From: a virus
Strand: one strand, 5' to 3'
DNA: 41,353 nucleotides
Virus genome (UHGV): UHGV-0007119
Every line of letters begins with the position of its first letter. Position 1 is the first letter of the stretch. The translations under genes were made by a program, and so were the position numbers. Positions 580 through 39,533 of the stretch are shown here, piece after piece. Under the pieces are notes generated by a model. That model was given only the letters and a program-made list of their open reading frames with translations. It made no database searches and was not told where the DNA came from.

Positions 580-2730
580 TTACGGCGCACTGGATAAAAT
601 AGACTTCGTCTTCGTAACAATAACATCTACAAAATCACCTGCAGATATAGCTGATGGTACTGTATCTGCAAGAGTAATCTTTCCTGAAGAGATGTTTTGC
701 ACATCTAATAATTTATTTTCAACCCCATCCGTATATACCAATTTGACATCACTGAATGGAGGGTAATAAGTGGCTGTTCCTTGGTATACATATATTTCAC
801 TGCCTGAAATTGATTTCACTACATACCTGCCCCTTACAAGATTAATTTTGATTTCAGATAAATCGGTTTTATAACAGGTAATTCCTGAACCAATGTTAGC
901 CATACTAATATCAGTATCACTATAATAAGTAATTGCTTTTCCTTGTTTTAAGGTGAAGTTATCTTTTCTTTTCCTTGGCAAGGATGTGCTATTTTTGTAA
1001 TATCTACCAGTTAAGCATAGCCATGAAAATGCAGTATTCGCTACATTACCACCAGAATACACAGCTAAACGAATTGCACTAACTGGAACCCCTTCATTAT
1101 TAATCCTGATCTTAATGGAAGAAATGTTAGCAACAGTAGCATATCTATGGTTAGATGAATCCCATTGCATAGAAGAAGTTATTGCTTCTGTTTGTGAAGT
1201 TATGACATTCCCATCTCCATCTAATGCATACAGGTAAATGCGAAACGATGCCGTATCTGCTGAGAATGTAAACATATCACCATTTCTTACTGGTACATCT
1301 CCAGATTCCCATAACAACCCAAAATTCCGCATAAAAGCAAACTTAGAAGAAACCAGGTGACGGATATTATATAAACCATCTACATCTGTTTGATATGCTA
1401 ATACACCAACTTCTCCATTGTTGGCACTGGATATAAATGGGGTGTTAGCATTTAAAGAAAACAATGTTACTTCATCGGATATATTTTCCTGAACATGAAA
1501 TACTGCATTCCCCTTGCCATTATCAGTTACCTCTACATAAGTGTAAGGTGATGGATTGTATGGTTCATTTGTATAGTAAGGAGAACTTAACCATGAAGCC
1601 TCAATTGAGTTATTCCACGTATATTCACCAAAGTTAATTATCAACTGTTGGTTAGTTATGGATGATGGATATCGTTCAAAACGAAACCCGTAGAAGTAAT
1701 TGTTATCACCTCTTTGAATATCAATTTTACCTGCCCCCTCCATAGTTCCACCATAAAACTTATTGTGGTTATGATGATATGGATTATCAGCGAAAATGAT
1801 ATTATTCGTACGATTCAGATAAAAATAGTTTTCATTTATCCATCCTTTCTCAACTCCAAGAAAATGAATTGTATCGACCTTTTTCAGGTTAAAGGTTGAG
1901 TATGCTATTGAATAATCCGTCGATGCCACCGAAGCATTATAATTTGCATATAACTGTAAGTAGTCGCAACGCTCAATGTTAATATGCTGCCCTTTTGCCC
2001 CGATAATACGAATATCCGGTGTCGTTTCAGATGAAATACCAGAATTTCTGATAATCGTTCCGAAGTTTTGTCTTGGGTTGTTAGGGTTTGATGCATTCCC
2101 GCCAAGCAATACCCCTATTCCTGAGTGGGATATGGTAAAAACAGCATTGGTCATTTCGAGGCTGACATTACGAAGATTTAATGTCTCCGTAATAATAAAA
2201 TTACCTTCCGCTCGTAATGTTCTGGATGATTCTCGTGCATATTCTGCAGCCAAGATCAATGCAGATGTGTCATCTGTTATACCATCGCCTTTTGCCCCCC
2301 ACCCTCTTACATCACAATCGTCCCTCCACCGAGATATCTGCAATTCAGGATATTTTTTAGCTCCATCCGGGTCTTCTAATTGCTGCCGTAGTTGATCAGG
2401 GTCATACTTCAGCACATTAGGAAAATAAAACTGCTGAGTGCCATATGCATCATATACAGCCATAGAATGGCCTTGCACAGTTACGAATTTGGCAATCTGC
2501 CCGTTATATACCGGATATCCAGCAGCGTTAATGATGATTGGTTGCGAAACGGGAACATGAGAGCCGTCTTCGTTCTCCACATAAACCTGAATCTGGTTTT
2601 CAGGATTTACCGGGTCAGTGTCAATTTTTCCGATATAAATTTTGCCATTGGCAACCGCTTTAAAAGAACGCGCCATAGTGAAGAGTTGCGAAGGCATCGA
2701 TACGATCACATTGGCTGTAATGTCTGTCAT
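580..2730 (-). CDS. Tailspike protein: P22-type N-terminal head-binding domain, divergent beta-helix receptor-binding domain
   Basis: 716 aa; first ~110 aa ([11 protein letters not shown]…NVLKYDPDQ) match the remembered P22 gp9 head-binding domain; the rest is unrelated with a [13 protein letters not shown] pectate-lyase-like motif and lower GC. Confidence 0.9.
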
Positions 2731-3766: not shown

Positions 3767-3834
3767 GTTGGTTTTTCTCCACGGATTTACTGACAACCGA
3801 AGCCCTGACTGTTCCCGCAGTTGGGGCTTCAACT

Positions 3835-35773: not shown

Positions 35774-36619
35774 GTGGCGGAGTGGGAAAAGATGAAACAA
35801 ATGTCACTAATTGAGATGGATGGTTTTCTGAAAGGTAAATGCATCCCAAATGATTTAAAGGTTAACGAAACAAACGCTGAATATCTTGTCCGTAAGTTCG
35901 GTGAACTTGAATCAAAACTGGAAACGGCGTTGCGGGAGTGTCGTTCTGCTGGAATCACGATTGATAACCTTGAGGCTAAATGCGCGAAGATGGCTGCTGA
36001 AAATACATCGCTTAAGCAATCTGAGAAGGAATGCGGATACTTTATTGACTGGCCTGGCGTCTGTCATAGGCGGGAGAGCATCAGAACCTACGCAGTGAAT
36101 TGCAATGACGCATGGCTAAACACCGAAGGTGATGACATCTCCGGCTCATACGTTAAGTACAAAGACCATCAGGAAGTGGTTGCCGCTCTTGAGGCCAAGT
36201 GCGCGGCGATGGCAGCGGAGAATGAGCTGGCTCGTAAAGCTGTTCAGGCATTCTGTGAGGTTGTTGGCGACAACACCGAGGTTATCGCTGAGGTGGTTGG
36301 GCGATATGGCGTTCTGGTTATTTTGAAGGCCATGAAGGCAACAGTAAATATGCCAGCCACCGATGCTTTCCTGGCTGAAATTCGTGCGGAAGCACGCAAC
36401 GAGGGGATTAACTATACCGCAAGCCGTCTTGCTGCTGCTTTCAATCACGGATTTATCAATAAGTCTTTACGTGAAGTTTTCGACGTTACACGCATGATTC
36501 TGTCAGCGAAAGAAGAGTTGGCTAATGAACCGCACCCGATTGATGGTCTTTCCGGTGAATATGCGGAGAAATCCCTAGAAGAATGGGCGGAACAGATTCG
36601 CAAAGGAGGCTGCCAGTGA
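35774..36619 (+). CDS. Hypothetical protein with internal repeat
   Basis: 281 aa, GTG start; two related segments (…[17 protein letters not shown]… and …[17 protein letters not shown]…); GTGA overlap with the next gene. Confidence 0.55.
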
Positions 36620-37314
36620 GCAAGATTGACTATCAGGCACTGCGCGAGGCGGCAGTGAAAGCAACGTGGGGAGACTGGGACTCATATAAACCACACCGTG
36701 GCGCACGTGGTTATGAGGTCCGACTAAGTAGTCAGGCCATTGCGCAACACGTTCTGAAAAACAACGCTGAATTTATTGCTGCCTTTAATCCCAAGGTTGC
36801 TTTGGCACTACTGGATGAGATCAACGCATTAGAGGAAACGCGTATCAACGATGTTTGCCGTATTGTGGAACTAACAAAACAACTGGAGTCGGCAAAATCA
36901 AAACTCAACGAGCAGCGCGAGCATTACGAGGGAGTAATCGCGGATGGAGGTAAGCGCATAGCAGAACTGGAAAAACAATGCGCTGAATCGGAGCGAAAAG
37001 CATTAAGCAACTTTGAAGAGTGTGCTGCGATGGCTGAACGTATCGAAGAGTTGGAGCAGGCCAACACAAGACAGGACGCCAATATAAACCACCAGCAGGA
37101 GGGCGTGACTCAATCAGTCACCCGATACATATATCACTACAACGCAGTGAATGGTTCTGACTCTATGTCTGGAATTGCGCGGTTAACTTTCATGATCAAA
37201 TCACAATCTGACCTTGACGCACTTAAAAGCGCACTTAGCAAGGTTGGTGGTTTCCGTGCAAAAGCAATTACATCTCTTTCATATCTTGGGTGTGAGGAAG
37301 ATAGCAAACGATGA
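36616..37314 (+). CDS. Ead/Ea22-like protein
   Basis: GTG start after AGGAGG; N-terminus [26 protein letters not shown]… typical of the Ead/Ea22 family, then a coiled-coil region. Confidence 0.7.
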   Translation: MSKIDYQALREAAVKATWGDWDSYKPHRGARGYEVRLSSQAIAQHVLKNNAEFIAAFNPKVALALLDEINALEETRINDVCRIVELTKQLESAKSKLNEQREHYEGVIADGGKRIAELEKQCAESERKALSNFEECAAMAERIEELEQANTRQDANINHQQEGVTQSVTRYIYHYNAVNGSDSMSGIARLTFMIKSQSDLDALKSALSKVGGFRAKAITSLSYLGCEEDSKR

Positions 37315-37844
37315 AAGAAGGATTTAAAGATAATTCAGGTGCAGCGCAAAACACTGGAGAAATCATTGAGGCATTTAATGGGGAGGAAATGCCCACTTTA
37401 TTCAGAAAAGAATATCCGCGAAAAAGTAGAGCGACAGAATTTTTGTTTCTCATTCTGTTTATCGTGTTGCTGATACCAATAGCCTCAATATTAGTGACTG
37501 TTCTAATGGGGAAAGTATTTGAACCGTTAGTTGAACTGTATATCGATATAGTGTGGACCCCATTCAGGAAGCTACACAATAAAATTAACCCACATAAGGA
37601 AACAAATATGGCAACTTTGAAAAAAGAAGATCGTTTTACCAAAAAACAAATCGCCGAGGCAAAAATCCTCGATAACAACGGAACCTACTTCATCAACGGT
37701 TCCATTCTTCCAGTTTATATCAATGAGGATGGAGACACTTACCTTATTGAAGAGTACGAAAAAGGCGAGCCGAGCGAACACCTCATTAAAGATTTGTTCG
37801 CGGATGGCGTTATTGTTGCTGTTAATCCGATTGGCTACAACTAA
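37311..37844 (+). CDS. Membrane-anchored hypothetical protein (AT-rich)
   Basis: 177 aa; ATGA overlap with upstream stop; one hydrophobic helix (FLFLILFIVLLIPIASILVTVLMG); possible internal start at MATLKKEDRF after AAGGAAAC. Confidence 0.5.
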   Translation: MKEGFKDNSGAAQNTGEIIEAFNGEEMPTLFRKEYPRKSRATEFLFLILFIVLLIPIASILVTVLMGKVFEPLVELYIDIVWTPFRKLHNKINPHKETNMATLKKEDRFTKKQIAEAKILDNNGTYFINGSILPVYINEDGDTYLIEEYEKGEPSEHLIKDLFADGVIVAVNPIGYN

Positions 37845-37854
37845 AGCATAAATT

Positions 37855-38367
37855 ATGACCAGTATTACCAGAGAACAGGCCAAGAAAATTATTGAAGCTG
37901 CCGATGAGGTTATTAGTGCGCTTGCCGGAACTAACGAGGATGTTCACCCTGGTAGCGATAACATGCTACGTCTGTGGGATGACCTGAATGACCGTTACGC
38001 GCCGCCGGAAGTTGTGCGTGAGCTGGCGCGTATCGTGCTGGCATCGCTGGAAGCGGAGCCTGTAGCGTGGCGATATCGCTACGTGAAAAAAGGCGTTACG
38101 GACTCTCAGGGGGAGCCGTGGGTTGGTGACTGGAAATATGTACCGACAAAAGAGGATTGCAACGACAGGCCGAGCTATGAGATTCAGGCCTTATTCACTG
38201 CCCCGCCAGTCCCGGTGACATCAGAAGGACTGGTTAAAGCCGTGCGTTTCTATGAACAGGTAAAGCGTGAGAATCCGCCAGTCGAAACCGGAGCATGGAA
38301 AGACGCTGTTGACTGGGTGCTCAAAGAGGCTTGCCAGGCTGTAAACATTGGTACCAAAGGAGATTGA
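37855..38367 (+). CDS. Hypothetical protein (paralogous family, member 1)
   Basis: 170 aa, MTSITREQAKKIIEAADEV…; shares N-terminal pattern and …ASLEAEPV… motif with the next gene. Confidence 0.5.
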   Translation: MTSITREQAKKIIEAADEVISALAGTNEDVHPGSDNMLRLWDDLNDRYAPPEVVRELARIVLASLEAEPVAWRYRYVKKGVTDSQGEPWVGDWKYVPTKEDCNDRPSYEIQALFTAPPVPVTSEGLVKAVRFYEQVKRENPPVETGAWKDAVDWVLKEACQAVNIGTKGD

Positions 38368-38368
38368 T

Positions 38369-38749
38369 ATGACCACTTTTACCGACAAAGAACTGATTAA
38401 AGAAATCAAAGAGCGCATAGGCAGCTTGGACGTTCGAGACAATATTGAGCGCCGTGCTTATGAAATTGCGCTGGCATCGCTGGAAGCAGATCCAGTTAAA
38501 CGAGTTAACTCAGATCAGATGCGCCGAGTCTGCTTAGAAGCTAATCGCCATTTAGATAAATATGACGCGATGGCGAAAGAGGTAAATAAGTTGCTTGGAC
38601 GCATCGCCCCGCCAGCGCCGGTAGTGCCGGAAGAAATCAGTACGACCCACACAATGCTGCCCGCCATGAGTGATCAGTTGATGGCGTTCGGTTATGTGAA
38701 GGGGTGGAATGCCTGCCGTGCCGCTATGCTTCAGGGAAAAGGAGTGTGA
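38369..38749 (+). CDS. Hypothetical protein (paralogous family, member 2)
   Basis: Start MTTFTDKELIKEIKER… after AAGGAG; …YEIALASLEADPV… motif. Confidence 0.5.
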   Translation: MTTFTDKELIKEIKERIGSLDVRDNIERRAYEIALASLEADPVKRVNSDQMRRVCLEANRHLDKYDAMAKEVNKLLGRIAPPAPVVPEEISTTHTMLPAMSDQLMAFGYVKGWNACRAAMLQGKGV

Positions 38750-39257: not shown

Positions 39258-39353
39258 AAGCGAAGCTTATACATATCTTTTACATCAGCAATCTATTGTT
39301 AATCTCCAATCAATGTTACGTTGTCATCTCACTCATGCTTTGGAGGTAGTGAT

Positions 39354-39533
39354 ATGTCTTGTCCAAAATGCGGTTCTGAAAATATTGCAAAAGAAAAAAC
39401 AATGCGTGGATGGTCTGATGATTATGTGTGCTGCGATTGCGGATACAACGACTCTAAAGACGCATTTGGAGAGCGTGGTAAAAACGAGTTTGTCAAAATT
39501 AATAAAGAACGCGAAGGCAACGGAAAAAGCTAA
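39354..39533 (+). CDS. Small zinc-ribbon protein
   Basis: 59 aa, MSCPKCGSEN…CCDCGYND (two CxxC pairs); ATG 7 nt after GGAGG. Confidence 0.5.
   Translation: MSCPKCGSENIAKEKTMRGWSDDYVCCDCGYNDSKDAFGERGKNEFVKINKEREGNGKS

Follow-up and report, generated by a model that had tools for sequence, protein, structure and literature searches.

An open reading frame of 177 codons occupies positions 37311–37844 (plus strand, ATG start, TAA stop) of the virus genome UHGV-0007119, the 41,353-nucleotide stretch of DNA that was analyzed and is called the window below. Its product combines a hydrophobic helix with a soluble C-terminal part, and the question is whether it is one membrane-anchored protein that evolved as such or the outcome of several genes sharing a frame. 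The first-pass annotation favored a single protein and named two genes as the alternative. We consider that the ORF is likely to be a derived state, an in-frame fusion of two small and independent accessory genes, headed by a relic leader.

The open reading frame and its setting

The 177-aa ORF stands in the mechanical ORF list as it had been described. Its start codon and the TGA stop of the upstream Ead/Ea22-like gene (36583–37314, plus strand, 243 aa; PF13935 Ead_Ea22, E 3.1e-21) overlap as ATGA. The translational coupling to the Ead-like gene that had been proposed is putative and is suggested only by this overlap. The local AT-richness was borne out: the GC contents of the three pieces of the ORF are 0.385, 0.361, and 0.405 (36–40%), whereas the window as a whole has 0.463 (46%) and the two flanking genes have 0.478 and 0.528.

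Profile searches gave a coding signal, with matches to DUF4014 (PF13198; 72.5 bits, E 3.9e-20, gathering cut-off 23.2) and to phrog_8930 (E 1.7e-74 with the 177-aa ORF). Judged by its sequence, 37311–37844 is a true coding sequence and not a chance ORF. Because the exact 177-aa sequence occurs on 11 public contigs, an assembly error of the window is excluded. Sequencing error was also rejected, since fused alleles that are identical or nearly so occur in finished genomes, in phage D6, and in hundreds of contigs. Two antisense ORFs, 37268–37678 and 37572–37883, were discarded; they have no Pfam match, and the codon-level substitutions fit the plus strand.

The ORF lies in the distal part of the pL region (“ea”, exo-to-int) of an E. 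coli phage of the P22-like/lambdoid kind. No Rfam family was found in or close to the 177-aa ORF. Within 36400–38600, there is no promoter-like site, and a single weak terminator-like site lies on the minus strand.

Three segments within one frame

Residues 27–98 (37389–37604, plus strand, 72 codons from M27 to T98) constitute a DUF4014 module, the sole Pfam match of the 177-aa ORF, as delimited by Pfam, phrog_1832, and the standalone 72-aa homologues. Residues 28–97 are aligned with positions 2–71 of the 72-position Pfam profile, and position 1 of phrog_1832 (E 3.2e-33) corresponds to residue 27, so that residues 27–98 match the whole model. The module shares with its family (933W L0067 and ArgO145 gp12 among its members) the invariant N-terminal motif TLFRKEYPR(K/R)SR, one hydrophobic helix, and the …LHNKINP(Y/H)KE tail; the N-tail in the window reads TLFRKEYPRKSR. 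Its location is also that of the family, in the int-proximal early-left region 3′ of an Ead/Ea22-like gene. In contrast to canonical members, which end in …KE(S/N)-stop, the copy in the window has no stop of its own past …KET and is not a free-standing protein of about 72 aa, as it carries 79 extra C-terminal residues and 26 spurious N-terminal codons. Elsewhere, the protein is exactly 72 aa long in 33 of the 50 related DUF4014 clusters listed, and at least 1000 contigs carry it in the 72-aa form, usually followed by an unrelated gene such as the 87-aa MATLTKKERAW gene or an HNH endonuclease. ArgO145 gp12 and 933W L0067 are themselves 72-aa proteins with a different gene downstream. The claim of one evolved membrane-anchored protein is not supported as a unit, because the hydrophobic helix belongs to a complete module that is usually a free-standing gene.

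The claim of a single strongly hydrophobic helix, on the other hand, was confirmed, and the topology prediction agrees with it. The best 19-residue Kyte-Doolittle window covers aa 44–62 (mean 3.24) within a hydrophobic run of roughly aa 44–66, and the predicted transmembrane helix is placed at aa 44–66 (37440–37508, plus strand) by Kyte-Doolittle analysis and AlphaFold2. The AlphaFold2 model has one long helix at aa 40–92, with pLDDT values of about 91–92 in the membrane part. The module is predicted to be a small single-pass membrane protein. Five K/R and two D/E residues lie N-terminal of the helix; C-terminal of it (aa 67–99) there are five K/R and four D/E, and the membrane-proximal C-flank is net acidic (K68 versus E71, E75, and D79). 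The basic N-flank suggests a putative N-in/C-out orientation.

A candidate Shine-Dalgarno sequence and the ATG (37389) of the canonical DUF4014 start at M27 (GGGGAGGAA; 37380–37391, plus strand) were located by the anti-Shine-Dalgarno duplex and the profile start. The calculated duplex energy is −11.5 kcal/mol, but the Shine-Dalgarno sequence is separated from the ATG by a short spacing of 2 nt, and both it and the AUG are enclosed in a local hairpin. We found no publication on DUF4014, PF13198, or 933W L0067, and no source paper for the database names “released from the phage upon host infection” and “sugar acetyltransferase inhibitor”. The gene is also absent from a modelling review of the exo-xis region.

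The 26 codons that precede M27 (aa 1–26; 37311–37388, plus strand) form a leader outside the DUF4014 module. Its DNA resembles the 3′ ends of upstream genes in TUM2820, D6 (orf101), and MIN14, with 1-nt indels, and none of 500 shuffles matched the score. The leader is, to judge from this resemblance, what is left of a third gene, decayed and frame-shifted: it derives from the 3′ end of a 63-aa gene like D6 orf101 (…REGIKDKRSAAQNRWKN…), a relationship that the first-pass annotation did not see. Similarity to the Stx phages and D6 begins only at 37386–37390, and PGAP places the start of the DUF4014 coding sequence at the M27 equivalent. The pLDDT values are below 50 at aa 1–13 and aa 21–34. The leader is dispensable and probably contributes nothing functional to the protein, and the overlap of its ATG with the Ead stop codon is due to chance.

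The internal start named in the first-pass annotation, MATLKKEDRF, is the ATG at 37608 (M100). From there, a 78-aa module (aa 100–177; 37608–37844, plus strand) was identified from gene 37 of APC_JM3.2, megablast, and AlphaFold2 as an acidic, beta-rich soluble protein of the phrog_8930/WP_000212569.1 family. The proposed soluble C-terminal domain is a separate gene elsewhere: the standalone gene 37 of APC_JM3.2, directly 3′ of an Ead gene, is 100% identical to aa 100–177 at the amino acid level. Megablast gave 97% identity over 37606–37861, and the 78 aa alone match phrog_8930 with E 9.7e-52. Twenty relatives were found at E 5.5e-32 to 5.7e-14, mostly 64–82 aa long and in pL operons without DUF4014. 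The family is free-standing in other lambdoid and P22-like phages, and it occurs alone and at other positions in Salmonella, Erwinia, and E. coli prophages. The window copy shares with the family (including Salmonella phage STP03_027) the start codon, the Shine-Dalgarno sequence, and the core QIAEAKILDxNGTYFINGSILPVY…EEYE…NPIGYN. The AAGGAA at 37596–37601 (duplex −6.2 kcal/mol) ends 7 nt 5′ of the ATG in unstructured RNA, so the 78-aa gene appears to keep a start and a Shine-Dalgarno sequence of its own at functional spacing, as a start candidate. Unlike in the standalone genes, no in-frame stop precedes the copy in the window. The open frame extends from 37311 to 37844, the gene is not a separate cistron, and it therefore also forms the C-terminal part of the longer ORF.

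An exhaustive HMMER search with the 78-aa protein returned only 22 small relatives, none tied to a characterized family. AlphaFold2 predicted a mostly beta fold (pLDDT 74), for which Foldseek found no match at E ≤ 0.001 in the PDB or BFVD (best values, E 0.4 with TM up to 0.43 in the PDB and E 0.05 in BFVD). Sequence and profile searches of the PDB gave just chance-level matches to GITR ligand (E 0.08–0.4). The phrog_8930 entry itself is 116 aa long, and its GTG start falls within the transmembrane helix (V62), which reflects how gene callers handle the fused ORF.

The junction and the missing base

DNA alignments locate the fusion junction at 37596–37610 (plus strand), AAGGAAA^CAAATATG, which contains the AAGGAA Shine-Dalgarno sequence of the 78-aa gene. 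Compared with the unfused relatives (AAGGAAAGCTGA-T-ATG), one G is missing between 37602 and 37603. In the unfused arrangement, the two genes lie head to tail with a stop, one base, and a start (…AAG GAA AGC TGA T ATG…). With the G of AAAGC deleted, the DUF4014 frame meets no stop before the ATG of the 78-aa gene, and ribosomes starting on DUF4014 must continue into that gene. In addition, the former TGA is mutated to AAT in the window. The same pair of genes is adjacent but separate in E. coli TUM2820, in plasmid pZ0117EC0062-2, and at one IMG/VR locus (L111), and ArgO145 also retains the AAAGC-TGA stop that is lacking in the window. The two-gene alternative of the first-pass annotation is thus correct as to origin, as these unfused pairs attest, but it does not describe the present state of the locus, where the 1-nt deletion has removed the stop.

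The G is lacking in the window, in phage D6, and in several plasmids of about 90 kb. D6 is a P1-like phage-plasmid, and its orf103 (YP_009914780.1, 151 aa, “DUF4014 family protein”) carries the same fusion with the same missing G (AAGGAAA-CTGATATG), at 87% amino acid and 90% nucleotide identity to the window. Where the window has AAT, D6 still shows the old TGA triplet, now out of frame. The D6 copy lacks the 26-codon leader and begins with a GTG, one base past the stop codon of the gene before it. The spans of similarity along the window differ among relatives: about 37386–37628 for the Stx phages, 37606–37861 for APC_JM3.2 and JEP4, and 37390–37867 for D6. In P0005 and P0007, other one-base changes join DUF4014 to a different downstream gene, which indicates that the junction fuses easily. 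Programmed frameshifting as a source of separate products was rejected, because no frameshift is needed and the sequence has no slippery motif at the junction.

Products, competing readings, and annotation of the fused gene

For the fused gene, the main initiation would be at M27 (37389), possibly also at 37311 through coupling to the Ead gene; the position of the M27 Shine-Dalgarno sequence, 2 nt from its ATG and in a hairpin, is one reason why such coupled initiation may occur. The product would be a 151-aa (or 177-aa) bitopic inner-membrane protein with a cytoplasmic N-tail, one transmembrane helix, and the 78-aa domain on a disordered linker. In the full-length AlphaFold2 model (pTM 0.34), the leader and the linker at aa 96–109 are disordered and the modules are not packed together; this model had no match in BFVD. 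The AAGGAA-N6-ATG at 37608 would still give a free cytoplasmic 78-aa protein. We infer that the most likely products are a membrane-anchored fusion from M27 and a free 78-aa protein from M100. Both modules would be non-essential, early-expressed accessory proteins, and their position and size suggest that DUF4014, in the inner membrane, and the acidic 78-aa protein, in the cytoplasm, most probably bind host proteins.

The fused allele is widespread. The 177-aa form is called on more than 300 contigs (133 in P0001, 168 in P0034, and 11 in P0033), and 12 distinct alleles were found in P22-like prophages and D6-like phage-plasmids of about 90 kb. Where DUF4014 and the 78-aa gene are adjacent in IMG/VR, 10 loci are fused and one is unfused, and the fused form persists over about 10% DNA divergence. 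The dN/dS values are 0.16–0.53 for the DUF4014 part and 0.06–0.13 for the 78-aa part, and both halves are under purifying selection. The dS values are unequal between the halves (0.77 versus 0.21 for the window versus pZ0117), indicating that the halves have separate histories.

PGAP treats the DUF4014 part as a pseudogene (“incomplete; missing C-terminus”) in CUVM3, MINF_7C, MIN14, and 10034292-3, and annotates the 78-aa coding sequence separately as WP_000212569.1. This would mean that the DUF4014 part is dead, its read-through product unstable or non-functional, and the 78-aa protein from the ATG at 37608 the only relevant one. The far stronger constraint on the 78-aa part is consistent with such a view, as is the loss of the DUF4014 start in one fused allele (L013), and with an N-in/C-out orientation the fusion would move a normally cytoplasmic domain to the periplasm. 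However, 15 of 16 fused alleles, representing 12 distinct DNA sequences, keep the complete set of 72 DUF4014 codons, and the DUF4014 part is intact in 92 of 119 unfused alleles; fused alleles are not more decayed than unfused ones. The changes are limited to the stop and the last residue or two, and the Pfam domain is therefore wholly kept. Between fused alleles, the dN/dS of DUF4014 is below 1 (P = 0.05, 0.17, and 0.0005), a result that is significant for D6 versus L014 (P = 0.0005) but marginal overall, and some of the differences may predate the fusion. We therefore regard a dead DUF4014 part as unlikely.

A selected dual-product gene, with nested starts giving a tethered isoform (the DUF4014 anchor plus the 78-aa domain) and a free 78-aa isoform, appears rather more doubtful. 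The excess of fused forms and their persistence over about 10% divergence could mean that the fusion was selected and not merely tolerated. Its spread with diversification among P22-like prophages and D6-like phage-plasmids, the selection on both halves, and the retention of the internal Shine-Dalgarno sequence and ATG in every fused allele seen would all fit. Both halves and the Shine-Dalgarno sequence and ATG are, however, equally expected to persist under mere tolerance, and the conservation of the ATG in the IMG/VR set is partly circular because the search pattern for fused alleles required it. The spread could also be hitch-hiking with a mobile mosaic segment, and the low pTM reflects modules without predicted contact. 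Lambda S107/S105 is a nested, in-frame dual-start gene, an evolved regulatory device whose products differ by few residues. The likeness would be only formal, in two in-frame starts with Shine-Dalgarno sequences and candidate long and short products; in contrast to lambda, the arrangement here traces to an accidental deletion between two genes. If the gene were a selected dual-product one, the membrane anchor would sequester the soluble protein's activity or shift it to another place, and this would explain why fused forms outnumber split ones among neighbors and why they spread between P22-like prophages and D6-like phage-plasmids.

The original proposal, a single genuine 177-aa membrane-anchored protein started at 37311 by coupling to Ead and bearing a C-terminal effector in exclusion or host modulation, is very improbable. 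It is consistent with the ATGA overlap, with the many contigs on which the 177-aa form is called, and with the predominance of the fused form where the modules adjoin, and with the hairpin at M27, translation of DUF4014 could require ribosomes that come from upstream. Against it, the frame-shifted leader is broken by an 11-nt deletion in a close relative (MINF_7C plasmid 4) that leaves DUF4014 intact, and D6-type fused alleles lack it altogether, their start being the M27 equivalent directly past the stop of another gene; the leader is also predicted to be disordered. Both modules occur alone, and also adjacent but unfused. The suggestion of an exclusion or host-modulation factor found no backing: neither the 177-aa nor the 78-aa sequence resembled any exclusion or defence protein in PADLOC at E up to 0.1, and in NCBIfam the former gave only a chance match to FadJ (E 0.038, 12.3 bits against a cut-off of 968) and the latter none. 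P22 SieA and SieB and HK97 gp15 are membrane superinfection-exclusion proteins of temperate phages. The product would resemble them as a small inner-membrane protein from the accessory region of a temperate enterobacterial phage, but it has no sequence or profile similarity to them, and its gene lies in the pL delayed-early operon. As a pL operon gene with no promoter-like site nearby, it gives no indication of the expression from a repressed prophage that exclusion needs.

An ancestral two-domain protein whose gene later split into the 72-aa and 78-aa genes would also account for fused copies outnumbering unfused ones, but it is extremely improbable in view of the abundance of 72-aa DUF4014 before unrelated genes, the solitary 78-aa genes of Salmonella, Erwinia, and E. 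coli, the very different dS of the two halves, and the occurrence of the stop-T-start motif in unrelated gene pairs as well.

A derived fusion of two genes bears on how this DNA is annotated. The same DNA is currently labelled as a 177-aa hypothetical protein, a 151-aa “DUF4014 family protein”, the 116-aa phrog_8930, or a pseudogene with or without a separate 78-aa coding sequence. The correct annotation would be two known but uncharacterized gene families, brought into one frame when a single base was lost at a stop-1nt-start junction. The locus is a clean example of tightly coupled phage genes that fuse through a single indel, with linker sequences shared at module boundaries, and such fused ORFs are commonplace in the mosaic accessory regions of phages. 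A large proportion of E. coli prophages, Stx phages included, carry DUF4014, and if the natural pair of fused and split forms differed in phenotype, it would offer a ready handle on the function of DUF4014.

The ORF and its early-left setting

The window belongs to a P22-like/lambdoid temperate E. coli phage, and its closest phage matches are vB_EcoP-683R2, mEp506, and HK022. The sole Rfam match in the window, at 3767–3834 (+), is a full-length sar RNA (RF00262, 95.6 bits). As the antisense RNA belonging to the P22-type immI/ant region, it marks the phage as P22-like. RecT (33633), Gp157, two Ead/Ea22-like genes, the 177-aa ORF, DUF551-type genes, a small zinc ribbon, and a lambda-type integrase (40280) all lie on the + strand. 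Together with the sar RNA and the phage matches, this gene content supports the P22-like/lambdoid assignment and bears out the placement of the ORF in the early-left accessory region by the first-pass annotation. In lambda and Stx phages, passages of two publications describe the exo–xis stretch as transcribed early and mostly uncharacterised (PMC10834534, PMC8614690).

The ORF in the mechanical ORF list starts with ATG and spans 37311..37844 (+), its ATG overlapping, as ATGA, the TGA of the preceding 243-aa Ead/Ea22-like ORF (36583..37314, +; PF13935, E 3.1e-21). The features first noted for it, a 177-aa ORF with a strongly hydrophobic segment in an AT-rich stretch, are all present: a hydrophobic run covers about aa 44–66 (top 19-residue Kyte-Doolittle window aa 44–62, mean 3.24), and the GC content is 0.36–0.40 along the ORF versus 0.463 in the window and 0.478 and 0.528 in the flanking genes. 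Pfam and PHROG matches identify it as real coding DNA, not a chance ORF, and the exact protein is present on 11 public contigs.

Two Ead/Ea22-type coiled-coil genes follow each other upstream, at 35774–36619 and 36583–37314 (+), with a 37-nt overlap. PHROG matches of the first are phrog_614 and phrog_368, and its match to Pfam Ead_Ea22 is weak (E 0.067). In the second, the C-terminal 60 residues fall into a PHROG of their own, phrog_29890, which indicates that these genes are themselves mosaic. A 70-aa CxxC…CxxC zinc-ribbon ORF lies just upstream of int (39321–39533, +). It matches HVO_2753_ZBP (E 1.6e-5) and the restriction-alleviation protein Lar (PF14354; E 8.7e-5, 23.1 bits with a cut-off of 28.6) below threshold, and could encode a Lar-like anti-restriction protein.

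Module composition and origin of the fusion

The ORF consists of three parts, a 26-codon leader and two modules, DUF4014 and a 78-aa one. The reading of the ORF as a single protein is not supported, because both of its modules are separate genes in relatives. Residues 28–97 align to positions 2–71 of the 72 in Pfam DUF4014 (E 3.9e-20), the match to phrog_1832 (72 positions) starts at residue 27, and the last 78 residues alone match phrog_8930 (E 9.7e-52). The phrog_8930 alignment (116 aa) extends from V62 (GTG, 37494, inside the transmembrane helix) to the ORF end; this family appears to be partly an annotation artefact, built from gene calls starting within the fused ORF. DNA similarity breaks at the module borders: Stx phages match only about 37386–37628, APC_JM3.2 and JEP4 only 37606–37861 (97%), and the P1-like phage-plasmid D6 37390–37867 (90%). 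In ArgO145, an HNH endonuclease comes after gp12, a DUF4014 gene of 72 aa, and gene 37 of APC_JM3.2, directly 3′ of an Ead gene, is a 78-aa gene 100% identical to residues 100–177. D6 orf103 is a fusion like that of the window, but it has 151 aa and starts at the equivalent of M27.

The 72-aa DUF4014 protein occurs in 33 of the 50 related clusters listed, one exact sequence being on at least 1000 contigs, and it is mostly followed by genes other than the 78-aa one; in IMG/VR, DUF4014, a stop, and an 87-aa MATLTKKERAW gene follow one another on 111 contigs. The 78-aa family is found on its own at other sites, within pL operons of Erwinia and Enterobacteriaceae prophages. An exhaustive search for its relatives gave only 22 representative clusters; pooled with other relatives, most have 64–82 aa. 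These two distributions mark the fusion as derived rather than ancestral.

The DUF4014 and 78-aa genes are adjacent yet separate in E. coli TUM2820 (L006, 1575..1793 and 1795..2031, respectively), plasmid pZ0117EC0062-2 (pZ0117), and IMG/VR locus L111. In DNA alignments, the unfused junction (TUM2820, pZ0117, ArgO145) reads …AAGGAAAGCTGA-T-ATGGCA, and the fused ones read …AAGGAAA-CTGATATGGCA in D6, …AAGGAAA-CAGATATGGCA in CUVM3 and several plasmids, and …AAGGAAA-CAAATATGGCA in the window. The fused junctions lack one G. Loss of that base brings DUF4014 in frame with the ATG of the following gene and abolishes its stop codon; the old TGA triplet has drifted subsequently. The alternative proposal of two genes, the second starting at MATLKKEDRF, thus holds for the origin of the ORF but is incomplete for its present state, in which the stop between them is lost. 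In proteins P0005 and P0007, DUF4014 is fused to the 87-aa gene through other single-base changes, indicating that a stop-1nt-start junction fuses easily.

A linker of ~25 nt, (A)AGGA(A/G)A..TGA-T-(A/G)TG GCA ACT TTG ACA AAA…, is repeated at junctions of unrelated gene pairs (window 37590–37635; L001 2490–2502; L002 2495–2505; L003 2215–2226; IMG/VR L069, L075, L133). The pairs are Ead/78-aa gene, D6 orf102/DUF4014, DUF4014/78-aa gene, DUF4014/87-aa gene, DUF4014/HNH, and orf101-like gene/87-aa gene. The genes 3′ of the linker differ, yet share their first 4–8 codons, MATL(T/K)K... It has the look of a boundary element through which modules recombine.

Start sites and state of the fused allele

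Similarity to D6 and Stx phages starts only at M27 (ATG 37389), where PGAP also places the DUF4014 start. The DNA of the 26-codon leader aligns to the 3′ end of the small gene preceding DUF4014 in TUM2820 and MIN14 and to D6 orf101 (…REGIKDKRSAAQNRWKN…); the score was reached by 0 of 500 shuffles, and 1-nt indels change the frame. An 11-nt deletion in MINF_7C plasmid 4 puts the leader out of frame and leaves DUF4014 intact. Close relatives differ in the leader by three non-synonymous changes and one synonymous change, and AlphaFold2 predicts it to be disordered. We conclude that the leader is a relic, open by chance, whose ATG overlaps the Ead stop. Initiation at the leader ATG (37311), coupled to the Ead gene, may nevertheless occur: the M27 Shine-Dalgarno (GGGGAGGAA) is strong, yet just 2 nt from the ATG and inside a hairpin. 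This predicted hairpin, GGCAUUU…AAAUGCC (37372–37395, +), encloses both the Shine-Dalgarno and the AUG, and predicted folding in a 60-nt context gives −10.9 kcal/mol at M27 versus −2.4 around M100. It might make the start dependent on ribosomes from upstream, or be due to chance.

The internal ATG (37608) retains an AAGGAA Shine-Dalgarno ending 7 nt upstream in RNA predicted to be unstructured, and would be as good a start site as most in the operon. Two products are expected: a bitopic fusion protein of 151 aa, possibly 177 aa, and a free 78-aa protein. The full-length AlphaFold2 model (pTM 0.34) has a long helix (aa 40–92), a disordered linker (aa 96–109), and, apart from these, a beta-rich domain; the modules do not pack against each other. 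The N-flank carries 5 K/R versus 2 D/E, and in the C-flank acidic residues prevail next to the membrane. This charge distribution suggests an N-in/C-out orientation, by which the fused domain may be on the periplasmic side; the free protein lacks a signal peptide and would be cytoplasmic.

The fused allele does not appear to be decaying. All 72 DUF4014 codons are kept in 15 of 16 fused copies (12 distinct DNA alleles) versus 92 of 119 unfused ones. Fused copies are also frequent: 177-aa forms occur on more than 300 contigs, and fused outnumber unfused 10 to 1 in IMG/VR. dN/dS is 0.06–0.13 in the 78-aa part and 0.16–0.53 in the DUF4014 part between fused alleles, the latter with mixed significance (P = 0.05, 0.17, 0.0005). 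That selection maintains the allele for making one tethered and one free product seems improbable to us. PGAP annotates the DUF4014 part as a pseudogene and the 78-aa CDS inconsistently. Between the window and pZ0117, dS contrasts sharply between the halves (0.77 against 0.21), so the junction is also a recombination joint.

About 22 of the 119 unfused DUF4014 copies (IMG/VR, e.g. L030, L032, L034, L088, L091) have one and the same start-proximal A-run frameshift (…NGHII*KKYPRKSR…), owing either to genuine loss of the gene or to homopolymer errors of older draft assemblies.

The Ead and DUF4014::78-aa segment is 95–99% identical among the P22-like window phage, chromosomal prophages (hits H21, H30), and many ~90-kb E. 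coli plasmids (H22–H29, H31–H34) that look like D6/P1-type phage-plasmids. This identity points to ea-region modules having been exchanged recently between temperate phages of very different types. In the CUVM3 chromosome (L004 1–6651), replication gene P and the small terminase subunit flank the segment, unlike in the window, where it sits between the recombination genes and int; the ea-type module set is in another part of that prophage.

Possible roles of the two modules

Searches of PADLOC (no match for either module), NCBIfam (one chance-level match only), PDB and BFVD structures (no significant fold match), PDB sequences and profiles (no match above chance level), and the papers covered (no mention of DUF4014, PF13198, L0067, or the family's two odd database names) returned no characterised relative of either module. 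The suggested exclusion function lacks specific support. No promoter-like site was found near the ORF, in the distal pL operon.

The 78-aa protein is acidic (14 D/E versus 8 K/R), and the DUF4014 tail TLFRKEYPRKSR is invariant. From position, size, and composition, our low-confidence guess is that both modules are dispensable early accessory proteins binding host components, DUF4014 acting at the inner membrane by way of this tail, on the cytoplasmic side, and the 78-aa protein in the cytoplasm. Public databases already contain the sequence under the names DUF4014 family or hypothetical, and the phenomenon is an ordinary one, in which an indel joins tightly coupled neighbours within the mosaic accessory region of a phage.
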